Positions 4,488-53,888 of a DNA stretch of 64,000 bases are shown in pieces. The translations under genes and the position numbers were made by a program. This stretch comes from a bacterium (lineage in GTDB: Bacteria; Patescibacteriota; CPR2; UBA1875; CAIMLA01): contig JBAXUE010000003.1 of the NCBI GenBank assembly GCA_037129835.1, forward strand, positions 87,275-151,274, given 5' to 3'. The notes beneath the pieces are model-generated. The model saw only the letters and a program-made list of their open reading frames with translations. It was not told the DNA's origin and did no database searches. Numbering within the stretch: position 1 is the first letter of the stretch; the number at the start of each line of letters is the position of its first letter.

Positions 4488-7286
4488 ATGAAAAGACCAA
4501 AATTTGTACTTATAGATGGTCATGCATTAATTCACCGAGCATATCATGCCATCCCACCACTCACCACCAAAAAAGGTGAGATAGTGAACGCTGTATATGG
4601 TTTTACGATGATTGTGTTAAACGTTTTACGTGATCTGAAGCCAGACTACATAGCGGTGGCGATGGATCTTCCTGGAAAAACTTTCCGTCACCATGATTTC
4701 GCGGACTATAAAGCCACAAGGAAGAAAGCGGATGATGACCTGGTAGCACAGTTTCCCCGTGTTTATGATGTTATTAATGCCTTAAATATCCCAATTTATG
4801 AACAAAAAGGCTTCGAAGCAGATGATATTATCGGATCGGCAGCAGAAAAGCTTAAAAACGACTACGAAGTGTACGTTGTTACTGGCGATCTTGATGAATT
4901 GCAACTCGTCGATGACCACGTCCACATCTACACAATGAAACGAGGATTTTCGGATATCTTTATCTATGATAAAGCAGCAGTAATGGAAAGATATGGTCTA
5001 ACTCCAGAAGAATTCGTCATTTTAAAGGCTCTCAAGGGCGATACTTCTGACAATATTCCAGGCGTCGCAGGCATCGGAGAAAAAACTGCTATCGATCTCG
5101 CATCAAAATACAAAAGTTTAGACGATTTATATGACAATTTGTATGAAATAAAGTCCTCAATTGCAAAGAAACTAGAAGACGGCAAAGAAAGTGCTTATCT
5201 CAGCTTGCATCTTTCAACAATAGTTCGTGATATCCCACTCGATATTTGCGAAGATGATTGTAAAACGCACCAATTTGACCGAGATAAAGCATTGGAATTA
5301 TTTCGTGAACTTGAGTTTAAATCATTATTAACTAGATTGCCAGTGAATAAGGACGATAAGGATATGGATTCCCGCCTACGCGGGAATGACAAGGGGGAGG
5401 GTAAGGATGACAAATATGATAATAATGGCAACATGGTAGTGAGTGAAAGCCGAGACCATTATACCAAAGAAAATTATATTCTCATTAATAATGAAGCAGA
5501 ACTAGTAAATCTAGCTAGTAAATTGTCGGCTCAGAAAATTATCGCTGTCGATACAGAGACAGATTCATTGGATACTATCTCTGCAAATCTGGTAGGAATA
5601 TCGTTTTCTTTTGAAGAAGGTAAGGCATATTATATTGCGATACTTGGTCTAGGTGGAGATACACTATCAAAGGAAACCGTTATAAGGCACTTGGATCCGA
5701 TACTTCGAGATCCGAAGGTTTCTAAAGTCGGCCATAATATCAAGTTTGATTACGAAGTACTTTTTGCAAACGGGTTTAGTTTTGAAGGTATCGTTTTTGA
5801 TACTATGGTGGCGGCATATCTGATTAATCCTAATGCAAGAGCTCAAAGATTAGACGAGCTAGCTTTCACTGAGCTTGGTATCGAGATGACGAAAATCGAT
5901 GAACTGATAGGAAAAGGTAAAGAGGAGATAACTTTTGATAAAGTGGACATCAATTCAGCTGCACTTTATGCCGCCGAAGATGCTGACATTACTTTACGCT
6001 TATACCATCATCTGCAGACAGATTTAGCAGAAGGCGGCTTCAATGAACTGATGGGCAAAATAGAGGCACCACTGATAACTGTTTTGGCTCGTGTGGAAAT
6101 GAATGGAGTAAAAATAGATTTGCCTTTGCTTTCTGATTTGTCTAAATCTTTTGGTTTAAGAATAGAAAAGCTGCAAACAGAGATTTACAAATTGGCTGGT
6201 GAAGAATTCAATATTGCCTCGCCTCTTCAAATGCAAAAAGTGCTTTATGACAACCTGGACCTTAGAAATAAAATACCATTTCCAAAAGACATAAAGAAAT
6301 TACCATCTGGCGGTTACTCGACAGGAGCAGAGCAACTGGAAAAGCTACGAGATTCTGGTCACCCAATAATAGAAAAAATTTTAGAATATAGAGAGCTTGC
6401 AAAACTAAAGAGTACGTATATCGACTCCCTGCCGAAGCTTGTTAGCTCTAAAACTGGACGGATTCACACTAGCTTTAACCAAGCTATTGTGGCAACGGGC
6501 AGACTTTCTTCTACAAATCCAAATCTCCAGAATATTCCTATTCGCACAGAGACAGGCATGCAGATACGCAAAGCATTTATTGCAGATCCCGGAAACAAAA
6601 TATTATCTGCAGATTACTCCCAGATAGAGCTACGAATTATTGCTCATATGTCAGGTGACACTGAAATGATAAAAGCCTTTAATGATGGCATAGATATCCA
6701 TACGGCGACAGCTGCCAAAGTATTTGCAGTCGATGAAAAAGATGTGACCAAAGAGATGCGTCGTACAGCGAAGATCGTGAATTTCGGAATCGTATATGGA
6801 GTTTCTGCCCATGGGCTACAGCGCCAAAGCAATCTTGAGTATGCAAGTGCTAAAGATTTTATTGATAAATATTTCGAAACATACAAAGGCGTTAAGCTTT
6901 ATCTAGACGCAGCTGTAAAAATAGCAAAAGAAAGAGGTTTCGCCGAAACTTTATTTGGGCGCAGACGGTATTTACCAGAGCTAAATAGTTCGAATTTCGC
7001 GGTTCGCGGCTCTGCAGAACGTATGGCTGCGAATATGCCGATTCAAGGGACAGCCGCAGATCTTATCAAACTTGCGATGATAGAAATAGACAAAGATTTA
7101 ACTACGTTTAGCCCTAAAACTAGGCTACTTCTTACGGTTCACGACGAGCTTGTTTTCGAAATTCCAGAAGACGAGGTCCAAAAAGTACAAGACTTTGTAA
7201 AGAAAAAGATGGAAAATGTAGTCAAGCTAGACGTGCCTGTAGTAGTAGACATCGGAGTAGGCGATAACTGGGGAGAAGCGAAATGA
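4488..7286 (+). CDS. polA: DNA polymerase I (5'-3' exonuclease + 3'-5' exonuclease + polymerase domains)
   Basis: N-terminal FEN-like domain, a 3'-5' exonuclease domain (AVDTETDSL...YAAEDAD) and the pol A motifs (RRTAKIVNFGIVYG; TVHDELVFE). It carries an in-frame palindromic element at 5366-5390. Confidence 0.95.
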   Translation: MKRPKFVLIDGHALIHRAYHAIPPLTTKKGEIVNAVYGFTMIVLNVLRDLKPDYIAVAMDLPGKTFRHHDFADYKATRKKADDDLVAQFPRVYDVINALNIPIYEQKGFEADDIIGSAAEKLKNDYEVYVVTGDLDELQLVDDHVHIYTMKRGFSDIFIYDKAAVMERYGLTPEEFVILKALKGDTSDNIPGVAGIGEKTAIDLASKYKSLDDLYDNLYEIKSSIAKKLEDGKESAYLSLHLSTIVRDIPLDICEDDCKTHQFDRDKALELFRELEFKSLLTRLPVNKDDKDMDSRLRGNDKGEGKDDKYDNNGNMVVSESRDHYTKENYILINNEAELVNLASKLSAQKIIAVDTETDSLDTISANLVGISFSFEEGKAYYIAILGLGGDTLSKETVIRHLDPILRDPKVSKVGHNIKFDYEVLFANGFSFEGIVFDTMVAAYLINPNARAQRLDELAFTELGIEMTKIDELIGKGKEEITFDKVDINSAALYAAEDADITLRLYHHLQTDLAEGGFNELMGKIEAPLITVLARVEMNGVKIDLPLLSDLSKSFGLRIEKLQTEIYKLAGEEFNIASPLQMQKVLYDNLDLRNKIPFPKDIKKLPSGGYSTGAEQLEKLRDSGHPIIEKILEYRELAKLKSTYIDSLPKLVSSKTGRIHTSFNQAIVATGRLSSTNPNLQNIPIRTETGMQIRKAFIADPGNKILSADYSQIELRIIAHMSGDTEMIKAFNDGIDIHTATAAKVFAVDEKDVTKEMRRTAKIVNFGIVYGVSAHGLQRQSNLEYASAKDFIDKYFETYKGVKLYLDAAVKIAKERGFAETLFGRRRYLPELNSSNFAVRGSAERMAANMPIQGTAADLIKLAMIEIDKDLTTFSPKTRLLLTVHDELVFEIPEDEVQKVQDFVKKKMENVVKLDVPVVVDIGVGDNWGEAK
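5366..5390. repeat. GC-rich palindromic hairpin element inserted in-frame in the polA inter-domain linker
   Basis: ggattcccgc-ctac-gcgggaatgac is a perfect 9-bp inverted repeat, nearly identical to the intergenic copy at 53425-53448. The antisense pseudo-ORF 5195-5434 reads SFPRRRESI. Confidence 0.7.
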
Positions 7287-24127: not shown

Positions 24128-24949
24128 ATGAAAAATATTTTATTAATTGATAAACAGGCTGGTTGGACAAGCTTTGATGTGGTGGCGAAGATTCGTAATG
24201 CTGTAAATCAAATAAATAAAAATCAGGGTTTACCGAAAACAAAACATGGAGTGAAGGTCGGACACGCTGGAACGCTAGACCCCTTTGCAACAGGTTTATT
24301 GATAGTTTTGGTTGGTAAAGAAACCACTGCCAAGCAAGAGATGTTTATGAAGCAAGATAAAGAATATCAAGCGACGCTTAGGCTTGGGTTCACTAGCAGT
24401 ACTGGAGACCCAGAGGGGGATATTACGTCATTTATTCCGTTGGCATCTCTGGTTCCTGAATCAAGTTCAGGACAGACTCCAGCCCAGGGATCTATCCTGT
24501 CTTCCGAAGGAGATCCTCGCGTTCGCAAGGATGACAAGCCATTTTTAGAAGATATAGAGGGTGTGTTACAGACATTTCTTGGCGAAATAGAGCAAATCCC
24601 CCCCATTTATAGCGCAATTAAGATAGATGGCAAACGAGCATACAAGCTTGCTAGGGCTGGGGAAAAAGTTGTAATGAAACCACGGCTAGTGAATATTCTG
24701 AAACTAAAGATAGACAAATACGCATACCCAGAACTGCGAGTCACTGTTAAATGTTCTTCGGGGACATACATCAGAAGCTTGGCAGAAGATATTGGTAAGA
24801 CACTTGGTTGCGGTGCCTATTTGACTGAACTCAGGCGTACAAAGATCGGCCACTACTCGATAGCAGATGCCGTAACTGTTGAGGCTGCTTTGAAAACCCT
24901 TGTTAATCCATTGAATAATGCACCTGATTGTAGTATAATTGATGCATAA
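24128..24949 (+). CDS. truB: tRNA pseudouridine(55) synthase TruB with an in-frame ~25-aa insertion; no PUA domain
   Basis: Motif II GHAGTLDPFATGLL (catalytic Asp) and EQIPPIYSAIK. The segment between LRLGFTSSTGD and EQIPP is ~25 aa longer than in canonical TruB and holds hairpin repeats. Confidence 0.9.
   Translation: MKNILLIDKQAGWTSFDVVAKIRNAVNQINKNQGLPKTKHGVKVGHAGTLDPFATGLLIVLVGKETTAKQEMFMKQDKEYQATLRLGFTSSTGDPEGDITSFIPLASLVPESSSGQTPAQGSILSSEGDPRVRKDDKPFLEDIEGVLQTFLGEIEQIPPIYSAIKIDGKRAYKLARAGEKVVMKPRLVNILKLKIDKYAYPELRVTVKCSSGTYIRSLAEDIGKTLGCGAYLTELRRTKIGHYSIADAVTVEAALKTLVNPLNNAPDCSIIDA
24455..24536. repeat. degenerate two-hairpin palindromic element inserted in-frame in truB
   Basis: ttcctgaa-tcaag-ttcagga (24455-24474) and gatcctcgc-gttc-gcaaggatgac (24512-24535). 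In reverse complement the order is hairpin A then a cttgat-loop hairpin, the same arrangement as the intergenic element at 53398-53448. Both this and the polA copy end in tgacaag. Confidence 0.6.
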
Positions 24950-25023
24950 TTAAGTAACACCCACCATGAGGCTGAATCCGTCGATCGCCGGACAGGCTTC
25001 GGGTCGGGCAAGAAGGAAGAAAC

Positions 25024-25293
25024 GTGTCAATCAAAAAAGAAGAAAAAGAACAGATAGTAAAAGAAGTAGGTAGAAGTGATAAAGACACTGGTTCGCCAGA
25101 AGTTCAAGTAGCTATTTTTACTGAAAAAATCAAGCAACTTACGGACCATTTAAAGACTCATAAAAAGGATGAACATTCTAGGCGTGGTCTTTTAAAAATG
25201 GTAGGTAAAAGACGTAGGCTCCTCGACTATTTATCGCGAAAAAACAAAGAAGTTTACGAAGCTTTAGTCAAAAAACTAGGTCTTCGCAAATAA
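25024..25293 (+). CDS. rpsO: 30S ribosomal protein S15
   Basis: [48 protein letters not shown]; GTG start; followed by pnp. Confidence 0.95.
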
Positions 25294-29526: not shown

Positions 29527-29652
29527 ATAAGTTTACAAAGCTAACATAAGGCGTATAATTATCAAGTTCCCATATTTGTGGGTCATCCTAGTGGATACTA
29601 GGATAAGGATGTCTGTCTCTGCATCAACTCAGGGACAAAGGAGGTGTGCCGG

Positions 29653-29955
29653 ATGGCCGCTAGCATAGAGATCGTTGATGGGCCAAGTAAGTATGGACTC
29701 ATCGAAAGTCTTACGGAAGGCGACAGCAGAAGTAGACACGAGGTCTACTTCAAGATTCTCGCCAAGGTACATGATGAGATCGTCGAAGACACTATCAGTG
29801 GCTGGGTTAACACACTCGGTCGTGAGGATGGTTCTTCATTCCTCTGGAACGTAAATCTCTACCTGCGAGAAGCGCCTGGGTTTATTGCAAAGCATGGAGG
29901 TTGTATTAAGTTCCAATACGATGCACGTAAGCGCAAAGGAATGGTACAACTCTAA
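29653..29955 (+). CDS. hypothetical protein in a higher-GC islet
   Basis: ATG at 29653 is 8 nt after an aaaggagg RBS. The ORF has ~47% GC against a ~38% background. Hairpins flank it upstream (29585-29608) and downstream (29979-30010). Confidence 0.45.
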   Translation: MAASIEIVDGPSKYGLIESLTEGDSRSRHEVYFKILAKVHDEIVEDTISGWVNTLGREDGSSFLWNVNLYLREAPGFIAKHGGCIKFQYDARKRKGMVQL

Positions 29956-29978
29956 GGCCGCGATCTGACCTGCCTCCG

Positions 29979-30010
29979 CCTTCTACCGCCTAATTCCAGG
30001 CGGTAGAAGG
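29979..30010 (+). terminator. terminator-like hairpin
   Basis: ccttctaccgcc-taattccag-gcggtagaagg is a 12-bp stem. Confidence 0.55.
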
Positions 30011-30076
30011 CATCTACATTGACTTTTCACGCGATATTTGATATAATTAATTTAATTTAAAAGCTCTCCAATAAAT

Positions 30077-32628: not shown

Positions 32629-32999
32629 ATTCTTTTTTTGGTTCTGTCAGCAAAGAAAGAAAAATGTCTTATCGTTTTGTCATTCCAAACTAGATTTGGG
32701 ATCCATGTCTAAAATATTTTAATACTTTTGTCTATCGTCACAAAAGTATCCAAAAAGACTCTTTTTCTCGCGATCAGAAAGCAGATCCGCGGTCTCAAGT
32801 GCTTATGTTTAGGTATAATTAAATTATTTTTTAACGCTCCCACGAACTCGGGTATCGTGTGTCGCCCAAAATCGGCTATAATTTTGGCAGAACCTCGCTT
32901 GTGACAGCTAACTCTATTATTTGATAAGGGAATATTGAAATTTAAATATATTTTATATCTTATTGTCAGAAAGTCTGAACTTGTGAGATAATGACCCTG

Positions 33000-33470
33000 A
33001 CCGAACGGCCGTGAGACGACCTTGAGGAGGGGATTTCTACGACGCCTGGAAAAGGACGTTCTATGGGCCCAGGTGGAACCTGGGGCTGCTCCCGAAATTC
33101 GGGTGGACAAAGACGGGTGGACTGTCAAAGTCGCCGTCTGCCTCGGAGTAGTCTGGCTGGGTATAGTACCCACAAGCTTCAGGCTGGCACGTTGCCAACA
33201 GAAATCGTCAGGGAAAAGTACGATTTCTGAACCTGCTACCAAGAAAGAGGTGAATTGGGATGAAAGCCCAAACACACATAGGGCATCACTCCGATAAGCG
33301 AGGGCGAAAGCTCCTCTGACCTAGGAGGTGATAGGCTTCGGCCTATCTAGGCCTGCTAATAACAGGCTAGGAGACCTCGCTATGGCCTCTGATTCGGGCT
33401 AAACCCCGGCAAGTGAGTTACGGCTCAAACCCCCCGTCTGTTCCAGATATTTTGGGACACGGGGGGTTTC
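33000..33470. ncRNA. candidate structured non-coding RNA; ~470-nt GC-rich island of unknown identity and strand
   Basis: ~55% GC over 470 nt in a ~38% GC genome, between two + strand genes. Many stem-loops, e.g. a perfect 10-bp stem cagaaatcgt/acgatttctg at 33199-33229, and a terminal C7/G6 hairpin at 33429-33468. Only low-complexity ORFs overlap it. Partial resemblances to RNase P P4 (gaugaaagccc...auagggca) and to a tmRNA post-tag region (gcuaauaa + hairpin) are not convincing. Confidence 0.4.
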
Positions 33471-42917: not shown

Positions 42918-45900
42918 ATGAAACCTAAAAAGGCTTATTTCAAGTTTCAGAAGAAAGAAGCTATTATTAGACCGTCAAAAATCGGTTCTTTTAGTGTTCA
43001 TGATTACTTTATAAAAACACAACTATTTATTTTAGAAATATTTTCTAAGCTTCATCTGGTTTTGCGCAAGCCGCACGATCAGGCTTATAAAAATATTAAA
43101 ATTTATAAAAATTATAGTGACCACCCCGCTTCTGGACCGATAAATCGCTCGGTAGCAGCCGGTTTCGTAGCTTCATTGGCGATTTTCCTAACTTTGCAAT
43201 ATGTTGTTCCAAATCTCTTTGACACCTTTAAGCCAAATAAGGCAGAAGCTTCATCAACTTCAAAACAATGGACATTAGATACAGATTTTAACAATAACAC
43301 CCCCACAACTGGTGTCGCTACCAACAGAGTTCTTGCCGTTTTGCCGGGTACTTCTTCCGTAACACTCGGTTCAAAAACAGTTACAGGTACAGGTACTGAT
43401 TTTACCACTTCGGTTAATACATATTCACCGAAAGAGGTGGCGATAAATGGTATAAGCTACGCAGTTGCGTCTGTAGAAAGCAATACTTCTCTTACATTAC
43501 GGGATAACTATCCTACAGCCACTGCTTCTGGATTAGCCTTGAGCCACAAAAGTGATACTGCGCTTCTAGGTACAGCCACATTAGTATCTGGCTCAGCTGC
43601 AGTGGTTGGTGTTGGTACAAATTTTAACACCAGTGTCAAAAAATTTGCTTCACCAATATTGATTAGAATATCGGGTACGGCCTATACGGTTTCTACGGTA
43701 ACCGACGACACACATCTTACACTCAGTGCCAATTCTGCAGTTTCTGGAGCTGGGCTACCGATTAGTTACGATAATGCTGTTGTAGGTAACAACGCAGTAT
43801 CACTGCACTCAGGTCCCGTAGCAACGACCTTGACATACGGTCTTGGTGGAAATGTGGGCAAAACAACTGCCGGTACATATTCTCTAGCGGTACCAGCGGG
43901 CATCACTGGTTTTACTGTAGATATCAAGGGCGCTGGCGGCGGCGGTGATACCGGTGGAGGGGCGGCTGGTACTGCTGGCGGGGTGACAAAGCTGTCTTAT
44001 AGTACTTACGATGCGACTGCGAACAGCGGTAGCGGTACCGGAGTGGTTGGCACGGCAAGTATCAGCGGATTTACCGGTCTGACGGCTGTAAGCGGTCAAG
44101 GTAACGCAGGAGGAGCTGGCGGTTATGGCACACCTGTTTACTATGACGGCGGTTGTCAATATGATTCCTGCGATCAACCATATGGCTGCTGGGCTCCTTA
44201 TTGGGACTACGGACCACTAGGTGCTAGCGGTGGCGCTGGTGGTAGGATTACTGGCTCTATTACTACGGCGCAAGTCGCAGGGCAGACACTATCTGTCGTT
44301 GTTGGTGCGGGCGGTGGTGGATATACAGCTGGTTCGATCGGTACAATCGTCGTAACCTATTTCACCACTGGTTATAACAGTACTGGCACGCTTTCAGGCT
44401 TAAAGATTGACTCTGGATCTAATGTAAAATCCAAGTGGAACACAGTATCTTGGGTGGGGACAACTACTGGAGCAGGGACTAATCCTATAAAGTTTCGGAC
44501 CCGGGGCTCGAATATGGCAAGCCCAACCACAGTTACTGGAAGCGCTGATACTGGATGGACGTATTGGAATAATGATGCAACTAACGTAGCTTATTACACA
44601 AGTACGGGAGCAACACTAGTAACCATCCCAACTAGATGGCTAGAAATAGAAGCTACCTTGACCACATCGGATATTACTGTTACTCCATCTTTGACTGATT
44701 TTACGATAAATTATGATACCTTAGATGCTCCTACAAACCTTGCTCAATACAAGGCAGATACTACGACGGCTATCAGTGCTAACTATACTAACGAAACTAG
44801 CTTTGTCGCCAAGGCGAATCTGGGCGTGCCACTCAAAAATTCTACACCTATCACGCCTCAGTTTGAAATCCGAACCACCGATACTGGCTGGACTGGGGCA
44901 GTAGCAGTACCGGCTGGCGTTACAGCCACTCCTACTAGCATAGTCTACACATGTACTGTTGATCCTTGTGCTGCTCTGGGAGTCCAAACGGTTGGAACCA
45001 TCACTGGTCTAACAGCTGGGACTAGCTATTATTACCGAGTTCGCACTACAGATGCCACAGGTCGGGTGTCTGGTTGGAGTGCCAGCTCTTCTTTTGTAAA
45101 TCCAGATCAGGCAGCACCTACTATTATTGCCTTCGTCAATGATGGGACAAGTGCGGACATTATATATTCATCTTCTTTGTCTCAGCTTTCTGCGAACTGG
45201 GGTGCTTCCACAGATGCAATTTCTGGTTTACAAAAATATCAATATGCCATCGGCACTACATCTGGGGGCACGAATACATTGACATGGACGGACAATGGTA
45301 CGGCTACTGCAGTGACAAAAACTGGACTATCACTTGTAGAAGGAACTACATATTATTTCACTGTTAGGGCTGTCGACAATGTTGGTAACACAAGCTTAGT
45401 TACAACTTCAAATGGTCAGCTTGTGGATGTATCGTCTCCAACGGGAACAATATCTATTAAAGATACAGAGAGTCCTTATAGTGATAATTATTCCAATGCG
45501 AAGCTCGTTAAACTTATTTTGACACCAGTAGAAACAGGCTCGGGTATGAAAGATTTCCAACTGTCTAATGACGGTGTTACATGGGGAACGGCAACAAGTA
45601 CTTTGGGAGTAGTGACAAACTCAGGAACTTGGGGGACATGGAGTGATGCCTATAATTCGACCGGATTTAGCGGTTGGTATCTAAGCGGGGCAGACGGGTC
45701 GAAGTCGGTTTATGTAAAGTATCGAGATGTAGCTTTGAATGTTTCTGGAACTCAGGGATCATATTCCCCGACAGCTTCTACGTCATGGACCATTCCTAAT
45801 GGTATTGCATCAATCAATTTTACTTTCGTTGGGGCTGGTGGTGGGGGTTGTTATGGCCCTAGATATAAACATACTGGTACTAGTGGCGGCAATGGTGGAG

Positions 45901-48900
45901 ACTCAGGAATCACAATCGGCGCCAACATCTATAAGGCGCTAGGCGGCACGGGAGCGACAGGAGAATATGATAGTGATTGTGGTATAGGCACTGATGGTGG
46001 GACTTCTTTCCCGGCCGGTTTTGTTCCGACACAAAATGTTACAGGAGGCGCAGGCAACGGTGGTCCAAATCCGGGCGATGATTATTACGCAGGTGGCCCT
46101 GGTGGCGCCGGAGGTTTATTGGCGGGTACAATTGGTGTAAGTGGCGGCAGTGCTACTATTTCTGTTGGAGCCATGGGTTCTCCAAATGGTGGCGCTGGAT
46201 CGGTTTTGATAACTTATTCTCAAAATATATCAGCCACTACCACGCTTGATACTACGGCTCCAACGGCCGCTATCACTTATTCATTATCACGTAACGTGAA
46301 GACCGGTGATGTACAGCGCATTACTGCTACATTTAATGAAGATATACTAGCAGGTACTTTACCAAAAGTGGCTATATCTGGCTCAAATACACTTGCCGCT
46401 ACAGATATGGTTAGGACAGATGCCACTCACTATTATTATGACTACACCGTAGGAGCTGGCAATGGAGCGTCAACGATCGCTTTGAGCGTGGGAACTGATC
46501 TTGCCGGTAATGTGGTAACGTCAGCCCCAACATCTGGTGCAACCTTTACCGTTGACAATGTCCTGCCAACAATTACATCAGCTACTTCAACGACCGCTAA
46601 TGGCTATTACAAGGCCGCAAATATAGTAAATGTTACAGTAAATTTCTCTGAAATCGTGTCTTCAATAGGTAGTGTTACTGTCAACTTAGATTCAGGTGGC
46701 GCTTGTAGTTTTATAATTACGAATTCTAACAGCGGTAGCTGTAATTATACAGTCGGAGCGAGCGATAATAGCTCTGACTTGAATACTAGTTCCATCTCCG
46801 GAAATATCAAAGATTTGGCTTTAAATACCTTAACCAACTTCGCTCCAGCTGCTTCTTTAGCTTCATCGAAAGCAATAGTTATCGATACCACAGCCCCAAC
46901 GGCTGCTATCACTTATTCATTATCACGTAATGTGAAGACTGGTGATGTACAGCGCATTACTGCTACATTCAATGAAGCTATGTTAGTAGGTACTTTGCCA
47001 AAAGTTGCTATATCCGGCTCAAATACACTTGCCGCTACAGATATGGTCAGGACAGATGCCACTCACTATTATTATGACTACACCGTAGGAGCTGGCAATG
47101 GAGCGTCAACGATCGCTTTGAGCGTGGGAACTGATCTTGCCGGTAATGTGGTAACATCAGCCCCAACATCTGGTGCAACCTTTACAATCGATAATATTGT
47201 ACCGACTCTCACAACGGTGACGATAGCTTCGAATAACACCATAAACCATGTGGCCAAGATGGGTAATCAAATCACACTTACAATAGTGGCTAGTGAAAGT
47301 GTTACTACACCTACTGTTATAATTGCGGGGAACTCGGCGACCGTAACGGGTACAGGAACTAACTATTCCGCAGTTTATACTATGGTAAGTGGAGATACAC
47401 AAGGGACGGTGCTATTCTCTATTTCAGCTTTTCAGGATTCAGCACTCAATACAGGATCGGTTGTAAGCACGAATACAGGTGGTAACAACATCACTTACGA
47501 TAGAACAAACCCTGATCAAATAACTATTACCAGTGTTAGTCCCGCTACAAACAATACCGGAGAGCAGACTGTCACTTGGGCAGATTATACAGATTCCGCT
47601 CCAACTTCTGGTTTTGGTAAATATGTATTACAAAGAAAGAAATCAACAGATGTGGACTTCTCAGATATAAGTCCAAGCGTAGAGATAACAAGTCAATCGA
47701 CTCATACATATTTGGACCATATAGCTCAGTCTAGTAATAGCTCTGGCACTTATTACTATCGCGTTATCGCCTATGATAGAGCTGGTAATAGTAGTAATGG
47801 GGCTGCATCTCAGGCGGTTGTTATAGATAATCAGGCACCAGCCGGTACTTTGCACATTCTTGACACAGTTAATGGGACAGATCCAAAGGCGACAAAGAAC
47901 AGCACTGTAAACCTTTCTTTCATTCTTACAGATGATTATTCCGGAGTTTCTAGCTACTCTATAGATAATGGTGATGGAAATTGGTCGGAGTCTACAGATA
48001 TCTCTAGCGATGGCCTTAGCCATAGCGGTACTTATACTGGATGGGCTCTCGTAAACCCTAGCACCGAAGGAACTAAGACGGTACGAATAAAACTTGCCGA
48101 TAAGGCTGGAAATGAAGTAACCAACATCTCTCATACTATTATCCTAGATACTACTTCACCGGACAGCATTAGCTCAGTTGTTGCTTATAGTGACGATACT
48201 CAGGAAACATCAATCTCTGAAACTGGCGATAGCCTAGGATGGTACCCTTATACTGGCCCGAATTTTAAATTTATATCTTCGGATCAAGTATCTGGAATAA
48301 AAGAATTTAAGTATTGTATCTATCGCCCGTCTTCCGAGAGCTGTGATTATACGGCCAATTCAGCGGTATCGGCTAGCCAAATAAACAATTCGAAAAGCTA
48401 TACTGGCAATGTTACATTAGAGCTTACAGACTTTGGTAATAATAATATGCAGGGGGAATTGCTCTTTAAGGTAATCGGCGTAGATTATGTTGGTAAGACT
48501 AGTGCGCCGTCGACATATACTTACAAGTTTGATAATACAGTGCCAACTTATGTTAATAATTTTTCCGCTACCCAGGGCACCTATACTGACAAGATAGTCC
48601 TTACTTGGGACAAATCTTCAAATATTACCCCAGTCGCACCGATTGAAAAATATAAAATAGAGCGGGTTCAGTCGAGCTATTACAATGGAATCAACGACAG
48701 CGATTGGACTCAGTTTATAAATTATCAGAATATCACTTGTCAGACAGCTACACCTTATGTTTGTTTAGATAAAGATGGAGTCCAGGTCGGTAATATTAGT
48801 TTAGACGGGAGTAGTTATAAATTTGAGAATAAACCTGAGGTCGATGGTATATCGTCTACCTCTACCGATGCTTCTCTCTTGTCTTCAACTAAATATATTT

Positions 48901-51900
48901 ATCGTATCAGTGCAAAAGACTATTCAAATGAAGAGTATGGACCGGTGCCCGCGAATGGTAATCAAAATCAGTTCGAGGTTTATGGCTACACCAAAGATAC
49001 CGAGAGTCCAGGGGTTTTGCCAACAGATGTGACTGCAGTAACCTGTGACGGTGCAAGTGTTCTAGCTTGTAATGATGACCTGGCCATGAGGGGCAGAAGA
49101 GTTTATGTTAGCTGGGCACCAGCAGAAGATAATATCTCAGCAATAGATTATTACGATATTTATAGAAGAGAAGGTGGCCCTAATGATCTAAACGGCTGGG
49201 ATAAAGTCGGTACGCTACCAGAAACTACGGATAACGAATTTACAAAGAGGGTATTTTACGACGACACCGTCGTAGATGCGAAATCATATTCTTACCGTAT
49301 TGTTGCGGTTGATAAGGCTAGACCATTGCCAGCGAATGCGACTGAGATAGTCCCAGGCGGTATGATTGATAATATTGAAAACGCTACCCAATCGGCAGTA
49401 TATGTTTATGATATTACACCGCCAGTAGTGCCCACTTCGTTTACTGTTCAACCCAAAGGCATTGATTGCTTTGATGTCGAGTGTACTCCGAAACAGATGG
49501 TCGGTATTAGTTGGCAAGAAACGACGGATAATACTCCAAGCAATAATATTTCGTATGAGCTGTATCGATCATTGTCAGCGACCTCGGGCTTCGGAGAAGT
49601 GGCGGCGGCGGCAACCATCTCGCCAGACAATACAGGCAAGTATTTCTATGAAGACAAGGCCTTGGATGATAGGACTACATATTATTACTACCTCAGGGTT
49701 ATTGACGGTCATGAAAATAGCGCAAATACTACGGTTATGGTAGTTACCACTGGTAATAGTTCAGCACCAACACCACCAAAAGATGTTTTAGTTTCTAATA
49801 GTGATAGTTCACTTACAGATCAAGCACATCAGCTTAGGGTCAGCTTTGTCGGTAGTTATGCAAGAGGGTTTGATTCAGTCACTAAAGAAAACGGAATCGT
49901 AGGTTATGATTCGTACATCTCGCAAACAAATATTATACCTGATATGCTTCAAGACCCAACAGACGGTACTACGAATAACTGTATTGATAACGAAACCGCC
50001 GATGACTGTTGGATAAGAATAAATAATGCTACGGTTGCAAATACCCAGACCCTTACTACACCGATCGGAGACGATTCTCATATTGTTAGAGCGTTTACTG
50101 CCGCAAATCTTACAGAAACAACACAATATTATTTCCGCATTCGTGCAGTGGACAACGGAAAAAATATTGACGGTTCAGATGCACCTCTTAAGTCACTTTT
50201 TACAGCGGTAACGCCTCTAGTTAAAAAAAGTGGTGGCTGGGAGGTTACGCGCGATCTCACTGTACCGCCGCTTCCAACTGGAGGCCTAGAGGTGAAAGTT
50301 ACTAATACTCACCCAAATACCACAGTACTTCGCAACATCGTTACTTGGAAGATTCTTAGTGAAAAACCTTTAAGAAAGAAACTACCATTTGAAATAGCTT
50401 ATAACGCCACGACGAATCCAAAAGGTTGTAAAGCGGTAGCAGTAAACGGAGTAGACTACTGCAACGATTTTTATAGCTTTGAATTATATAGAGAGGTATT
50501 GGACGTAGATAATAATGTAATATACGAAAGTTCTACCCCGATAAAGACAGAAATTAATCCTGAGACAAACTTTTATATCGATGAGATAGGTAACACAGAT
50601 CTTATCGGTGGTACGGGTGATAGCTCATTCCTTATCGATGCCAAAATAAGATATTATGTTAAAGTCGTTGATAGTTCTATCTATAACTTCAACTACCCAG
50701 ATGGCACTAGTATCAATGCACTTCCAAACAAAACCGAGAGGCAAGATTCTGGATCCACTATTATTCCTGCCAAGTCGATACCAAGCATATTGGGTTTAGT
50801 CACGGTTTCTGACATTGGTGTTTCTTCGGCGACTGTTTCGTGGACGACCAATCAATCAACAGATGCCGTAGTTGAATTTCGGAAAAAGTATAAAAATGGT
50901 AACTCAGGGGAGTTAAATGACGGTACTTATCAGGTTATCGGAGAGAATAGTAACCCTGTTATACACGTAGAAACAGAAAATCATGCCGTACAAATGTTCG
51001 GCCTTCAAGCAGAGACTGAATATGATTATCGAGTTGTTTCAAAGAATTATTTGGCGAACACAGTTTATAGAAGTGGTAATGACGTGCCAACCTTAAAGAC
51101 TAAAGGATTCACCATCACCTATTTGCCGAATCGACTATCAACTACAACTGTATCTGCAGAACTACGTTGGTCTACCAATATGCCGTCAAATTCAAATATG
51201 GTTGAGTTTAGAGAAAGCAATGGGACACAAAACGGTGCAGTGGCTGAAACGCCACTAAAAACAGAGGAAGTTACTACTTGGGCAAAAAACTGTGAAGCGA
51301 ATCCAAACTCTCAGCTTTGCTCTCATTCGGTAATTATCTCTCCTTTAAAGAAAAGTACAGAGTATACAATAAATATAGTTTCTGTTTCTCTCGACAATTA
51401 TAATACAAGCTCTGGGCTTCAGAAATTTACGACTGCAAGCTCTGATTCTAAACAGTTTACGGTTAAGCCATCTGCTTCGAATGTCGCTGAAAGAAATATT
51501 ACTGCCACTTCGGCTCAAATAGTTTTCCAGACCGCAGAGAGCACAACTGCTACTCTTTACTATGATGTTGAGAGCGGTGCTCCAACCTATGAGCCAAAAG
51601 ATTATAAGCTTACTGCTACAGACGCATTGAATAGCACTACTCATCAGATCCTCGTCGATGGACTCGAGCCGGGCAAAAAATATTATTATATTGTAAAGGT
51701 TGATAATGGGCTTCTTTCCTACACTTCCCCAGAGTCTTCGTTTACTGCGGTTCTAAAACCAAAAATATCAAATCTTAAAGTAGCCGAAGTAAAGCCATAC
51801 TCATTCCAGGTTACCTGGGAAACAAATATTGATACTGAAACGCTCATCAATTTAGGTGCGGGCTCGGCAAACTATAGCGAGAAAAGAGGCAAGCCCGGAC

Positions 51901-52451
51901 TAGTTAAGAGTCACGACCTCATGGTTGATCAACTTACTGATAACACAGAGTATCATTATCAGATATTAGCCAAAGATGACACTGGCAATGAAGTTGCCTC
52001 TAGTGACTCTATTATAAGAACACCACTAGATACAGAGGGGCCAAAGATATCTGGCGTAAAAGTAGATATCTTACCAATGGGAGAAAATGATACCAAGTCT
52101 TCGGTAATCATTTCCTGGATAACTGACAAGCCAGCCACCACCTTGGTAGAGTATGACAAAGGTGTCATCGGCGGCGATTATGGCAACCGTTCTGTAGAAG
52201 ATACTTCTCTTAATAATTCACACACCGTTATCATTAAGGGTCTTGATCCCGCTGCTTCCTATCACTATCGTATTATTTCCAAGGATAAACGAAATAATAT
52301 TACTGAATCACAGGATTATACGTTTGTTACGCCTAGTAGAGAAAAATCTATCTTACAGCTTATACTTAAATCATTTGAAGAAACATTTGCTTGGACCCAG
52401 AGATTAAACGAGTTTTTTGGGAGTTTGGGCAAGAGATTTGCCGGAAAGTAA
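42918..52451 (+). CDS. giant cell-surface protein (3177 aa): N-terminal membrane anchor, Thr/Ser/Gly-rich Ig-like repeats, Gly-rich modules, C-terminal FN3-like repeats
   Basis: Uninterrupted 9.5-kb ORF. TM helix VAAGFVASLAIFLTL near the N-terminus, so the true start may be a non-ATG codon downstream of 42918. Repeated domain boundaries of the form (V/I)DxTAPT/VDNxxP. GGxGG-rich blocks at ~43.9-44.3 kb and ~45.8-46.2 kb. Tandem ~90-100-aa FN3-like units in the last ~2 kb (e.g. VSWTTNQSTDAVVEF...YDYRV). Confidence 0.85.
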   Translation: MKPKKAYFKFQKKEAIIRPSKIGSFSVHDYFIKTQLFILEIFSKLHLVLRKPHDQAYKNIKIYKNYSDHPASGPINRSVAAGFVASLAIFLTLQYVVPNLFDTFKPNKAEASSTSKQWTLDTDFNNNTPTTGVATNRVLAVLPGTSSVTLGSKTVTGTGTDFTTSVNTYSPKEVAINGISYAVASVESNTSLTLRDNYPTATASGLALSHKSDTALLGTATLVSGSAAVVGVGTNFNTSVKKFASPILIRISGTAYTVSTVTDDTHLTLSANSAVSGAGLPISYDNAVVGNNAVSLHSGPVATTLTYGLGGNVGKTTAGTYSLAVPAGITGFTVDIKGAGGGGDTGGGAAGTAGGVTKLSYSTYDATANSGSGTGVVGTASISGFTGLTAVSGQGNAGGAGGYGTPVYYDGGCQYDSCDQPYGCWAPYWDYGPLGASGGAGGRITGSITTAQVAGQTLSVVVGAGGGGYTAGSIGTIVVTYFTTGYNSTGTLSGLKIDSGSNVKSKWNTVSWVGTTTGAGTNPIKFRTRGSNMASPTTVTGSADTGWTYWNNDATNVAYYTSTGATLVTIPTRWLEIEATLTTSDITVTPSLTDFTINYDTLDAPTNLAQYKADTTTAISANYTNETSFVAKANLGVPLKNSTPITPQFEIRTTDTGWTGAVAVPAGVTATPTSIVYTCTVDPCAALGVQTVGTITGLTAGTSYYYRVRTTDATGRVSGWSASSSFVNPDQAAPTIIAFVNDGTSADIIYSSSLSQLSANWGASTDAISGLQKYQYAIGTTSGGTNTLTWTDNGTATAVTKTGLSLVEGTTYYFTVRAVDNVGNTSLVTTSNGQLVDVSSPTGTISIKDTESPYSDNYSNAKLVKLILTPVETGSGMKDFQLSNDGVTWGTATSTLGVVTNSGTWGTWSDAYNSTGFSGWYLSGADGSKSVYVKYRDVALNVSGTQGSYSPTASTSWTIPNGIASINFTFVGAGGGGCYGPRYKHTGTSGGNGGDSGITIGANIYKALGGTGATGEYDSDCGIGTDGGTSFPAGFVPTQNVTGGAGNGGPNPGDDYYAGGPGGAGGLLAGTIGVSGGSATISVGAMGSPNGGAGSVLITYSQNISATTTLDTTAPTAAITYSLSRNVKTGDVQRITATFNEDILAGTLPKVAISGSNTLAATDMVRTDATHYYYDYTVGAGNGASTIALSVGTDLAGNVVTSAPTSGATFTVDNVLPTITSATSTTANGYYKAANIVNVTVNFSEIVSSIGSVTVNLDSGGACSFIITNSNSGSCNYTVGASDNSSDLNTSSISGNIKDLALNTLTNFAPAASLASSKAIVIDTTAPTAAITYSLSRNVKTGDVQRITATFNEAMLVGTLPKVAISGSNTLAATDMVRTDATHYYYDYTVGAGNGASTIALSVGTDLAGNVVTSAPTSGATFTIDNIVPTLTTVTIASNNTINHVAKMGNQITLTIVASESVTTPTVIIAGNSATVTGTGTNYSAVYTMVSGDTQGTVLFSISAFQDSALNTGSVVSTNTGGNNITYDRTNPDQITITSVSPATNNTGEQTVTWADYTDSAPTSGFGKYVLQRKKSTDVDFSDISPSVEITSQSTHTYLDHIAQSSNSSGTYYYRVIAYDRAGNSSNGAASQAVVIDNQAPAGTLHILDTVNGTDPKATKNSTVNLSFILTDDYSGVSSYSIDNGDGNWSESTDISSDGLSHSGTYTGWALVNPSTEGTKTVRIKLADKAGNEVTNISHTIILDTTSPDSISSVVAYSDDTQETSISETGDSLGWYPYTGPNFKFISSDQVSGIKEFKYCIYRPSSESCDYTANSAVSASQINNSKSYTGNVTLELTDFGNNNMQGELLFKVIGVDYVGKTSAPSTYTYKFDNTVPTYVNNFSATQGTYTDKIVLTWDKSSNITPVAPIEKYKIERVQSSYYNGINDSDWTQFINYQNITCQTATPYVCLDKDGVQVGNISLDGSSYKFENKPEVDGISSTSTDASLLSSTKYIYRISAKDYSNEEYGPVPANGNQNQFEVYGYTKDTESPGVLPTDVTAVTCDGASVLACNDDLAMRGRRVYVSWAPAEDNISAIDYYDIYRREGGPNDLNGWDKVGTLPETTDNEFTKRVFYDDTVVDAKSYSYRIVAVDKARPLPANATEIVPGGMIDNIENATQSAVYVYDITPPVVPTSFTVQPKGIDCFDVECTPKQMVGISWQETTDNTPSNNISYELYRSLSATSGFGEVAAAATISPDNTGKYFYEDKALDDRTTYYYYLRVIDGHENSANTTVMVVTTGNSSAPTPPKDVLVSNSDSSLTDQAHQLRVSFVGSYARGFDSVTKENGIVGYDSYISQTNIIPDMLQDPTDGTTNNCIDNETADDCWIRINNATVANTQTLTTPIGDDSHIVRAFTAANLTETTQYYFRIRAVDNGKNIDGSDAPLKSLFTAVTPLVKKSGGWEVTRDLTVPPLPTGGLEVKVTNTHPNTTVLRNIVTWKILSEKPLRKKLPFEIAYNATTNPKGCKAVAVNGVDYCNDFYSFELYREVLDVDNNVIYESSTPIKTEINPETNFYIDEIGNTDLIGGTGDSSFLIDAKIRYYVKVVDSSIYNFNYPDGTSINALPNKTERQDSGSTIIPAKSIPSILGLVTVSDIGVSSATVSWTTNQSTDAVVEFRKKYKNGNSGELNDGTYQVIGENSNPVIHVETENHAVQMFGLQAETEYDYRVVSKNYLANTVYRSGNDVPTLKTKGFTITYLPNRLSTTTVSAELRWSTNMPSNSNMVEFRESNGTQNGAVAETPLKTEEVTTWAKNCEANPNSQLCSHSVIISPLKKSTEYTINIVSVSLDNYNTSSGLQKFTTASSDSKQFTVKPSASNVAERNITATSAQIVFQTAESTTATLYYDVESGAPTYEPKDYKLTATDALNSTTHQILVDGLEPGKKYYYIVKVDNGLLSYTSPESSFTAVLKPKISNLKVAEVKPYSFQVTWETNIDTETLINLGAGSANYSEKRGKPGLVKSHDLMVDQLTDNTEYHYQILAKDDTGNEVASSDSIIRTPLDTEGPKISGVKVDILPMGENDTKSSVIISWITDKPATTLVEYDKGVIGGDYGNRSVEDTSLNNSHTVIIKGLDPAASYHYRIISKDKRNNITESQDYTFVTPSREKSILQLILKSFEETFAWTQRLNEFFGSLGKRFAGK
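46251..46550 (+). repeat. intragenic repeat copy 1 (~300 bp) inside the giant gene
   Basis: ~95% nucleotide identity to 46886-47186. It encodes TAPTAAITYSLSRNVKTGDVQRITATFNE...VTSAPTSGATFTVDN. Confidence 0.85.
46886..47186 (+). repeat. intragenic repeat copy 2 (~300 bp) inside the giant gene
   Basis: Near-identical to copy 1, with an in-frame 636-bp period. The intervening domain, and the domain following copy 2, are divergent. Confidence 0.85.
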
Positions 52452-52982: not shown

Positions 52983-53197
52983 CTGTAATTATTACTATAT
53001 CTTCTTTTTTTATAATAACTTACTCCACTTTTGCATAGCCAGGGTGGAGGCATTAACCTGTCTGTTGCAGGCAGAGACCGAGCCTCAATATTTTACTGTT
53101 CGAAGTCTGGTAGTAGTTGGCTTGAGAACTGCTCCCCACGTCATTCCTCAATCTAGTTGAGGACAGGCTCTAAACTTGATTTAGGATCTCTTTCATA

Positions 53198-53247
53198 TTG
53201 TTCGAATTCTAATGAGAACTATAGACACATGTTATGTGTTATTTTCT
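53198..53247. repeat. 50-bp AT-rich direct repeat, copy 1
   Basis: ttgttcgaattctaatgagaactatagacacatgttatgtgttattttc; repeated at 53590-53638 with ~90% identity. Confidence 0.8.
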
Positions 53248-53397
53248 TTTCAATTTTCTCTTGAAAGAAAAATGAGTTAACCTGCCTGCCGCAGGCGGGA
53301 TTCAAGAAAAATCCTTCTTCGCACCCTAGCTTCCGACGTCGCTAAAGCTATGCTGGACAAATCGGACGGACAGGTCGAACTATTTCTACTCCCCGTT

Positions 53398-53448
53398 GTC
53401 ATTCCGGACTTGATCCGGAATCTAGATTCCCGCTTTCGCGGGAATGAC
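53398..53448. repeat. canonical double palindromic hairpin element (intergenic copy)
   Basis: gtcattccgga-cttga-tccggaatctag + gattcccgc-tttc-gcgggaatgac. Antisense pseudo-ORFs read SFPRKRESRFRIKSGMT. This is the same hairpin family as the polA and truB inserts. Confidence 0.8.
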
Positions 53449-53589
53449 GGGAGTGGGGACGATTGTCGGGTGCGTGACACCAAAGCGATTTTTCATAGGA
53501 ATTAACACTCAAAGCCCAAACCCTTACATCATCCTGAGTCGAAACGAAGCTTGCCTGCGGTAAGCAGGGATCCATGTCCACTCTCCTTA

Positions 53590-53638
53590 TCGTTCGAATT
53601 CTAATGAGAACTATAGATACAAGTTATATGTTATTTTT
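53590..53638. repeat. 50-bp AT-rich direct repeat, copy 2
   Basis: tcgttcgaattctaatgagaactatagatacaagttatatgttattttt. Confidence 0.8.
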
Positions 53639-53888
53639 CATAGAACCTACGTAATCCAACCATCAGGTCGAAAAGAAAGAGAGTTAAGTAGCGAACATAT
53701 AATAAATAACTTCCGGTATCGGCTTGTTGTTATTTATTATATTAGAGTTACTGTAACGAAAGATGCTTTAAAGAATCTGCTTGCTCGTTCCGCCCGCCCG
53801 AACGACCTTCAGGTCGGGCAGGTAACCTTGGTGAAGGAGGGTTAGGTTGGGCTTTTTGCACCACTTTTATCAAAAAAGTGGTAGTAAA

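Follow-up and report, generated by a model that had tools for sequence, protein, structure and literature searches.

The 64-kb stretch of DNA presented above (hereafter the window; 39.5% G+C) encodes proteins that are closest to Patescibacteria/Saccharimonadales proteins. One of its genes is truB, for the tRNA pseudouridine-55 synthase, and this gene carries an in-frame insert with two short hairpins, which we compare here with the repetitive extragenic palindromes (REPs) of other bacteria. The locus is made up as follows.

24128 to 24949, plus strand: truB, the host gene; an open reading frame (ORF) of 273 aa, with PF01509/PF16198 in its homologues and TruB chains of the PDB matching at E = 1e-36
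24446 to 24535, plus strand: inserted segment of ~87 nt (29 codons); the left edge is uncertain by ~10 nt, the right edge is the GAC head at 24533-24535
24452 to 24479, plus strand: REP unit 1, (g)TTCCTGAAtcaagTTCAGGAcagactc; stem 24454-24460 / 24466-24472, loop 24461-24465, 5' CGTC head lost
24480 to 24512, plus strand: spacer between units 1 and 2; holds CCAGCCC, which by sequence comparison is also present in a copy in a DHH-family gene of a relative (L137, see below)
24513 to 24535, plus strand: REP unit 2, ATCCTCGC-gttc-GCAAGGAT plus GAC head; matches the strict CGTC descriptor and encodes DPRVRKDD

The stretch from GDPEG to QIPP counts 58 aa in the window protein and 29 aa in the closest insert-free orthologues (P0002, P0004, P0005, P0006 and P0022), which gives an excess of ~29 aa; in E. 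coli TruB it is 27 aa long. An initial annotation of this locus had already noticed the excess, though at ~25 aa it was set too low, and had seen two hairpins in the extra DNA. Both hairpins are indeed present with small offsets, and the string quoted from position 24455 in fact starts at 24453.

The ORF is intact across the insert and the reading frame is kept. Within the protein, the insert falls in the loop that joins the beta-strand after the TGD(P)EG motif to the helix behind it. In an AlphaFold2 model of TruB (41-sequence alignment; mean predicted local distance difference test score, pLDDT, of 83) it lies between strand 99-101 and helix 140-148, and residues 109-132 have a pLDDT below 50 and no secondary structure. 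When the protein was compared with PDB chains using HMMER, the match was split at the insert, with query residues 5-104 corresponding to E. coli TruB 15-100 and residues 141-260 to 106-224; the solved TruBs have no counterpart of query 112-139 (M. tuberculosis TruB) or 105-140 (E. coli TruB). The insert is therefore an additional, probably disordered loop that would lie between positions ~100 and ~106 of the E. coli protein, in line with the surface loop that the initial annotation had proposed. An intact ORF and a segment predicted to be disordered between secondary-structure elements are also what is seen with the in-frame Rickettsia palindromic elements (RPEs), which keep the frame and occupy surface or permissive regions.

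The hairpin units of the truB insert

CGTC-tagged REPs were defined by Di Nocera, De Gregorio & Rocco (2013; BMC Genomics 14:522; PMC3733652). They have a CGTC head (variants TGTC and CCTC), an 8-9-bp stem whose first bases are AT, and a short unpaired tail with the consensus CCA; the loop measures 4 nt in CGTC-1 and 5 nt in CGTC-2 to -4. Most form head-outward (HH) dimers, often heterodimers, and most are intergenic; no dedicated transposase is known for them (PMC3733652).

The first hairpin of the truB insert, TCCTGAA-tcaag-TTCAGGA at 24454-24472, has a perfect 7-bp stem and a 5-nt loop, with an outer pair T.C where the family has A-T. Its head position reads ctgg, where a sibling copy at 53139-53170 has CGTC, and it is followed by cag(a)ctc, the consensus tail CCA being at the end opposite the head. 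The arms of the second hairpin (24513-24520 / 24525-24532) form 7 of 8 pairs, with one C.A mismatch, around a 4-nt loop; GACaag follows, in which GACa corresponds to the TGTC variant of the head, and a tail is not recognisable. As described here, the truB units fit the stem and loop of the family (8-9 bp, first pairs A-T and T-A, loop of 4-5 nt).

To place unit 1 we used a 28-mer consisting of hairpin 1 and its 3' flank, with the pattern built from the L137 copy, and searched 1.38 Mb allowing up to 6 mismatches. Only three occurrences were found, namely the reference itself in L137, the window truB (2 mismatches) and the intergenic window position 53143 (3 mismatches). The truB 28-mer is thus 26/28 identical to L137:1830-1857, a copy that follows the reading frame of a DHH-family gene in a second Saccharimonadia genome, and it is 25/28 identical to window 53143-53170. 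Judged by sequence, unit 1 belongs to the ATTCCTGAATCAAGTTCAGGACAGGCTC subfamily common to these two positions, whose copies have a loop of their own plus a 3' CAGGCTC extension. Because the homologous copy at 53139-53170 keeps its 5' CGTC head, unit 1 was read as head-5', which would make the truB insert an HH dimer on the plus strand with the head of unit 1 at the 5' side and that of unit 2 (GAC) at the 3' side.

Other readings of these hairpins were set aside. Hairpin 1 as a flipped unit in a tandem, suggested by its loop tcaag being the reverse complement of cttga, was dropped as the 53139 and L137 copies show a subfamily with its own loop. Hairpin 1 might also be nested within an older unit, whose arms would be ATCTCTGG (24445-24452) and CCAGGGAT (24484-24491) with hairpin 1 in their loop; this was not kept because CCAGCCC is also internal to the L137 copy. 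A CGTCATT at 24426-24432, which might be taken for a head, lies in native T-S-F codons common to sequences of the insert-free type and was considered a coincidence.

The remaining members of the family in the window are the following.

5366 to 5391, plus strand: pristine CGTC-1 unit in-frame in polA (4488-7286), ggATTCCCGCctacGCGGGAATGACa; exact palindrome encoding MDSRLRGND, nhmmer E = 3e-8
29581 to 29604, plus strand: intergenic single unit, GGTC-ATCCTAGTggatACTAGGAT; strict descriptor match
32678 to 32705, plus strand: intergenic single unit, TGTC-ATTCCAAActagaTTTGGGAT-cca, downstream of the RNase J gene; strict descriptor match
53139 to 53170, plus strand: intergenic single unit of the truB-unit-1 subfamily with its CGTC head intact, CGTC-AT-TCCTCAAtctagTTGAGGA-CAGGCTC
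53397 to 53449, plus strand: intergenic HH dimer, TGTC-ATTCCGGActtgaTCCGGAAT-ctag-ATTCCCGCtttcGCGGGAAT-GACG; profile E = 1e-11 and 1e-9

A two-unit pattern scan of one genome per species returned at least 119 loci with 120 dimer copies, with the consensus GTCATTCCGGACTTGATCCGGAATCCAG-spacer-CTGGATTCCCGCTTTCGCGGGAATGAC, and nhmmer profiles of the A and B units were built from these 120 pristine dimers. The profiles recover the polA copy and the intergenic ones (E = 1e-8 to 1e-11); being too narrow, they were replaced by a descriptor derived from the published definition, which in its strict form asks for an 8-nt stem starting with AT, at least 5 of 6 inner pairs, a loop of 4-5 nt and a GAC head. 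This strict descriptor matches the 64-kb window six times (polA 5368, truB 24513, 53426, 53398-53421 on the minus strand, 29582-29604 and 32679-32702), compared with a mean of 0.14 in 200 dinucleotide shuffles. In a relaxed form it gives 17 matches against 4.9 +/- 2.3 expected, and both truB hairpins are among them, while ~0.007 relaxed matches would be expected in the 87-nt insert by our own arithmetic. Within the 64 kb examined the family is thus dispersed in many copies (at least 8 units, of which 5 of ~8 lie in the small intergenic fraction), as is typical of CGTC-tagged REPs. The polA copy and both units at 53397-53449 carry a TGTC/CGTC head, and tails are seen at 32703-32705 (cca) and 53422-53424 (cta). 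The HH arrangement is found at 53397-53449 and in the truB inserts of the relatives L001 and L137 described below.

According to the initial annotation, the truB insert was a degenerate copy of the intergenic element at 53398-53448, seen in reverse complement. The two do belong to one superfamily, but the insert is not a copy of that dimer, which is made of ATTCCGGA / ATTCCCGC units, whereas unit 1 would fall in the ATTCCTGAATCAAGTTCAGGACAGGCTC subfamily; likewise the head-outward arrangement is the same in both, but reverse complementation is not needed to see it. The observation that the insert ends in tgacaag like the polA copy holds (24530-24536 in truB, 5387-5393 in polA), and the peptides are as given there (GDPRVRKDDK in TruB, MDSRLRGNDK in PolA). 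The shared frame of DPRVRKDDK and DSRLRGNDK is real but adds little, because only two frames of that orientation are open.

The same TruB loop in relatives and competing explanations

We surveyed the 120 closest TruB homologues and could score the loop in 116 of them. It is 27-31 aa long in 72 orthologues and 32-77 aa in the other 44, the expansion being at exactly the place of the insert. Peptides of a left head (RHS/CHS/CHP/VIP...) and of a right head (..QDD/NDK) occur together in 18 of the 44 expanded loops and in none of the 72 short ones, and at the level of the protein sequence at least 18 of the 44 read as dimers. On a neighbour-joining (NJ) tree, expanded and unexpanded loops are interspersed. 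The DNA of the loop was read in five relatives, including the following.

L001 (P0032, 55% identical): ttGTCATTCCGGActtgaTCCGGAATct...GATTCCTGCtttcaCAGGAATGAC; first unit 28/28 identical to window 53396-53423 (our count)
L137 (P0007): clean dimer, CGTCATTCTGAAtttatTTCAGAATcta...ATCCTGAAacgagTTCAGGATGACg
L138 (P0013): clean unit GATTCCTGCctacGCAGGAATGAC at the position of unit 2 and at the same right junction; the loop holds GATTCCTGCctacGCAGGAATGACaaacct
L136 (P0003, syntenic with the window): decaying dimer, with a right junction ..GGATGACAAGCCCTTTTTAAAAGATATAGAGGGTGTGTTAC almost identical to that of the window

The right junction of unit 2, ..AGGATGACAAGCCnTTTTTA, and the string ..GGATGACAAGCC.TTTTTA are common to the window and its close relative L136. 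Since clean or shared units occupy the same site in relatives, unit 2 of the window would be the counterpart of their repeat unit, and the window insert is probably inherited. The repeat-bearing genomes compared here (the window, L001, L137 and L138) carry the family in the TruB loop. Conversely, the syntenic close relatives L219 and L220 have loops of 29 aa and no strict units in 41 kb, and at 55 metagenome TruB loci, where the loop measures 19-31 aa, not one strict unit occurs in 201 kb; the underlying metagenome scan with the TruB protein returned 80 loci, and the loop was unexpanded in all 64 in which it was recognisable, which makes these loci useless for tracing the insert but suitable as a repeat-free control. 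The comparison with orthologues from repeat-free relatives, which had been proposed along with the initial annotation as a check, thus favours an inserted repeat. The suggestion of the initial annotation that a proliferating repeat is tolerated in a surface loop, as opposed to a coincidence, gains support from the descriptors, the 28-mer, the relatives and the disordered model taken together.

As a separate observation, two further genomes, L002 and L003 (TruB P0078 and P0061), carry in the same loop another GC-rich insert, ...gagcactctttacggg...cccgtggcgttcggctgacgggg..., which encodes SEHSLRE..ARGVRLTG and does not fit the CGTC descriptor. Other repeat families may therefore also use this TruB loop.

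A loop that is expanded in 44 of 116 orthologues with the frame kept open, in a gene that like polA is a recurrent host in unrelated phyla, would also be expected if the insert had begun as a repeat but had since been adopted. TruB would then have gained a new property from it, for example the ability to bind RNA or a partner or to act as a chaperone, and selection would preserve the insert; a speculation of this kind was put forward by Di Nocera et al. for REP-tagged repair and RNA-modification genes (PMC3733652). We regard adoption as improbable here, considering that the sequence and length of the insert vary widely among relatives, many of which have none, that the insert is predicted to be disordered and the window copy is decaying, and that the DNA palindromes are conserved while the peptides are not.

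A further possibility is that the hairpins act as RNA or DNA inside the gene and are maintained for that role. They might stabilise the mRNA or direct its processing, make the ribosome pause, or be bound by a nucleoid protein or a recombinase. Effects on mRNA stability and on termination are known for REPs that lie outside genes (PMC3733652, background), and the stems in the relatives differ by paired changes so that the hairpins persist (ATTCTGAA/TTCAGAAT, ATTCCGGA/TCCGGAAT and TCCTGAA/TTCAGGA). The paired differences are explained equally well, however, if each genome inserts, or converts to, its own subtype, and the L137 truB unit ATTCTGAA...TTCAGAAT does recur elsewhere in that genome, at L137:1786-1809. 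In addition, hairpin 1 is the only stable part of the window's truB insert, hairpin 2 and the whole segment not being stable, and Rfam has no match over any unit in the window or in 20 dimer-bearing loci. We therefore consider a role at the RNA or DNA level very improbable.

Several observations weigh against interpreting the insert as a decayed REP dimer. Unit 1 has no CGTC head. Unit 2 taken alone is weak, with 7 of 8 pairs and a fold z of -0.36, and its 15/20 matches to the CGTC-1 consensus (our count) have to be seen against ~0.5 such chance matches expected per window. The strict 120-copy nhmmer profiles detect neither truB unit. Folding, which had been suggested as a further check, gave a DNA fold z of -2.05 for hairpin 1 (compared with -3.2 for the 53139 unit and -5.7 for the intergenic dimer 53397-53449). 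For the whole 95-nt truB segment, the fold is no more stable than that of shuffled sequences (z = -0.27 as RNA, -0.93 as DNA). The NJ tree is weak, as it is based on a 220-aa protein, and the shared site is compatible with one old insertion followed by many losses, with repeated insertions and with gene conversion. The open frame is what speaks for translation of the insert. With respect to mobility, a Pfam scan of 10 window ORFs that are small or unknown yielded no transposase domain, and the other ORFs were judged from their N-terminal sequences. No recurrent mobilising neighbour emerged among 1,893 ORFs around the 120 dimers, where the four largest neighbour clusters were generic (ABC ATPase, PAS kinase, SDR and acyl-CoA ligase; by eye, without a Pfam scan) and the fifth was repeat-encoded. 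While this agrees with the lack of a dedicated transposase in the 2013 paper, it means that the mobility step is argued from analogy.

Some of these points fit the idea that the TruB loop is a lineage-specific low-complexity expansion, produced by slippage or ordinary indels, in which the hairpins and the DxRxRxxDK peptide resemble a repeat by chance. An insert that folds like its shuffles and an imperfect hairpin 2 missed by the strict profiles would be expected in that case, and the length of TruB surface loops varies in many lineages. Folding energy is, on the other hand, not useful for a decayed copy, and thermodynamics does not settle the question of chance. Chance does not account for the 26 of 28 positions at which unit 1 agrees with a copy from a different gene and a different genome, without background matches in 1.38 Mb, for two descriptor matches in 87 nt, or for clean dimers at the same site in relatives when repeat-free relatives have short loops, and we hold such an origin to be extremely improbable. 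Taking all of this together, it is very likely that the 29 extra truB codons are a partly decayed dimer of CGTC-tagged REPs, which sits in a permissive loop as a passenger.

Spread of the repeat, other host genes and the rest of the window

For a decayed REP dimer the following course of events can be envisaged. The repeat would spread as a non-autonomous element via hairpin-forming single-stranded DNA, with the enzyme supplied in trans. Selection would then leave those insertions that keep the frame, that avoid the single frame interrupted by a stop codon (of the three frames of a head-3' unit, one includes TGA) and that lie in permissive loops or linkers. An occupied site would be re-used or overwritten by further units, which would turn the TruB loop into a hot spot, and such attraction or overwriting would explain why each genome has its own subtype at the same TruB junction. 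The window copy would have been inherited and be decaying by point mutation, while being translated as a harmless surface loop with no function of its own. In Saccharimonadia this TruB loop would thus be a notable insertion hot spot.

A more specific possibility is that the loop after TGDPEG is a genuine landing pad, reached by site-directed insertion into or next to existing units, or by gene conversion. Different Saccharimonadia subtypes are found at the same junction (...GAC followed by AAR CCN), with ATTCCGGA in L001, ATTCTGAA in L137 and TCCTGAA in the window. We think that a landing pad is rather unlikely; if true, the same system would be what preserves one identical dimer of 50-70 nt across 10 or more phyla, among them members of the candidate phyla radiation (CPR) and a Methanosarcina bin, and it would provide a way to approach the activity that mobilises CGTC repeats.

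Copies within other genes are not confined to the window. Pristine dimers are in-frame in a GT2-GT4 fusion (L126), a GT4 glycosyltransferase (L121) and a thymidylate kinase (L025) of low-GC genomes. In L137, the DHH-family gene measures 571 aa, compared with 540-541 aa in L001, L219 and L220, and has a cluster of in-frame repeat-like stretches at 1750-1900. Three of these were identified in the DNA: a clean unit at 1786-1809, one of the unit-1 type at 1830-1857 and a GGTTCAGGATGACG end near 1886-1899; the repeat peptide reads VISTEVEKSSPPRHSELVSESTKTVTEIPESSSGQ...RQVQDD. In the window, the polA unit is a perfect ATTCCCGC-ctac-GCGGGAAT-GACaag at 5368-5393 in the linker that joins the 5'-nuclease domain to the 3'-5' exonuclease domain, and the closest polA orthologue, P0121 (69% identical in aligned region A2), is without 13 aa at this site. 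The pristine polA unit is flanked by AAGGACGATAAG (5350-5361) and AAGGATGACAAA (5403-5414), both encoding KDDK and resembling the 3' arm and head of truB unit 2 (GCAAGGATGACAAG); these flanks may be remnants of older units in the same linker.

Among the matches listed, the hosts of dimers include Dehalococcoidia, Aminicenantes, Nitrospirota, Thermodesulfobacteriota, Syntrophaceae, Cloacimonadota, Ignavibacteriaceae, a Methanosarcina bin and several Patescibacteria, so that Chloroflexota, Aminicenantes, Nitrospirota, Cloacimonadota and others are added to the phyla of the 2013 catalogue. The first unit is also carried by 13 viral contigs. The archaeal case is a pristine dimer at 1506-1572 of L078, a Methanosarcina sp. 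metagenome contig (JADGNM010000222.1) binned as archaeon, which reflects either wrong binning or the presence of the repeat in both domains. In non-CPR genomes (L017-L135, e.g. L077, L058 and L056) the HH dimer commonly forms the centre of a longer inverted repeat, together a palindromic element of ~130 nt, with forms such as ...actttacaatgtt[dimer]...cattgtaaag..., cgtaaaaagt...actttttacg and ctttaca...tgtaaag. This longer element, which is absent here, could resemble a miniature inverted-repeat transposable element (MITE).

Some further observations concern the surroundings of the units in the window. The interval 29527-30076, between the metallophosphoesterase and uracil-DNA glycosylase (UDG) genes, is ~550 bp long here and ~100 bp in the syntenic L219 and L220. 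It contains the unit at 29581-29604, a GC-rich 103-aa ORF (29644-29955, no Pfam match) and a perfect 14-bp hairpin (29978-30011), and looks like a small inserted cassette adjoining a repeat unit. The repeat-rich intergenic stretch with the HH dimer is bracketed by 50-nt direct repeats (53196-53245 and 53588-53637; 92% identical, 392 nt apart). Two GC-rich islands, one between truB and rpsO (24957-25026, ...ggacaggcttcgggtcgggcaag...) and one at 53773-53834 (...cgaccttcaggtcgggcagg...), share a motif; they may be another small repeat family or, in the first case, an rpsO leader. Downstream of the RNase J gene, a GC-rich stretch of ~460 nt (32990-33450) has no convincing ORF and a weak Rfam match to CssrA (33288-33390; 32 bits against a gathering score of 93, E = 2e-4), and may be an unrecognised structured RNA; neither a tRNA nor a tmRNA was found in the 64 kb with ARAGORN or with Rfam at the gathering threshold. 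Finally, a single ORF of 3,177 aa (42918-52451), with an internal 300-nt repeat (46248-46547 / 46884-47183, 95% identical) and several glycine-rich GC islands, probably encodes a giant surface protein.

Relation to known repeat families

The identification of the truB insert as a REP dimer would explain the GC-rich hairpin stretches and the peptides xDSRFRGNDx, VIPDLIRN and PESSSGQ that occur inside CPR housekeeping proteins. Such peptides would be passengers and not domains, and should be masked in alignments, phylogenies and structure predictions. The Saccharimonadia TruB series, with its 44 expanded loops among 116, offers natural material for dating gain, decay and loss, and it could help in the search for the mobilising enzyme. 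The CGTC-tagged repeats, catalogued from five phyla, now extend to Patescibacteria and several uncultivated phyla, with truB and polA as recurrent hosts repeated independently in a distant lineage.

Of the known systems, the REPINs mobilised by RAYTs (GTAG-tagged REPs) resemble the truB dimer in that two inverted hairpin units form a larger palindrome; they are also non-autonomous and thought to move via single-stranded DNA. They differ in the head, which is GTAG there and CGTC/TGTC here, and in forming lineage-specific populations, whereas the identical dimer is found here across many phyla; moreover, REPINs flank a cognate RAYT gene (a Y1 HUH transposase), whereas neither a RAYT nor an IS200-like gene turned up among the ORFs inspected in the window and around the 120 dimers. 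MITEs that are found in-frame, such as the QMITEs of Coxiella (PMC5896051) and the cyanobacterial Nezha, are likewise short non-coding repeats with inverted ends that are occasionally translated. A MITE has terminal inverted repeats of 15-30 bp and a target-site duplication. With 24-28 nt, however, the units described here are much shorter than a MITE, and inspection by eye of the flanks of the 120 dimers and of the truB inserts revealed no target-site duplication.

The RPEs (RPE-1 to RPE-8; Ogata et al. 2000, 2002) resemble the truB insert in that they interrupt housekeeping genes of a small, AT-rich genome without breaking the frame, at sites that the protein fold tolerates. An RPE-1 is present in the R. 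conorii truB (main text of PMC3733652). In sequence, RPE-1 is unrelated to the truB insert of the window. It is also a longer element, of 100-150 bp. The dRS3 repeats and NIMEs of Neisseria, on the other hand, have the same ATTCCCnnnnnnnnGGGAAT palindrome, and the exact string ATTCCCGCGAAAGCGGGAAT was found in a Neisseria paper. In Neisseria genomes, such units occur in clusters as intergenic mosaics, into which prophages and IS110-type elements integrate. We saw no association with prophage or IS110-type integration here.

The closest known system is that of the CGTC-tagged REPs themselves, of which CGTC-1 equals Neisseria dRS3 and R. conorii RPE-6, and CGTC-4 equals RPE-4 (PMC3733652). The translated peptides VIPAKAGI, SFPRKRES, LDSRFRGND and DSRLRGND are identical there and here. 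As far as peptides are compared, the pristine units of the window encode the same ones as R. conorii CGTC-1/RPE-6 (LDSRFRGND, DSRLRGND), while the truB units are of other subtypes. The truB copy of the window differs from the published repeats by its decay, with unit 1 headless and unit 2 carrying a mismatch. Another difference is that the same-category gene insertions of 2013 were mostly at different sites, whereas in Saccharimonadia TruB the same loop has been either hit or retained in many lineages. The hosts differ as well. In 2013 they were Proteobacteria, Chlorobi, Bacteroidetes, Spirochaetes and Thermotogae (PMC3733652), while the host here belongs to the Patescibacteria/Saccharimonadia; a literature search, made with the translated peptides and for CPR palindromic elements, found no description of REPs in Patescibacteria. 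In-frame copies in DNA polymerase I of R. palustris (aa 338-367) and in TruB of S. alaskensis (aa 169-177), E. litoralis (aa 164-190) and S. maltophilia are contained in the supplementary table of the 2013 paper (PMC3733652). The repeat family and its in-frame truB and polA copies are therefore already known and the Patescibacteria are new as a host phylum, which makes the truB insert a new member of a known family in a new phylum.

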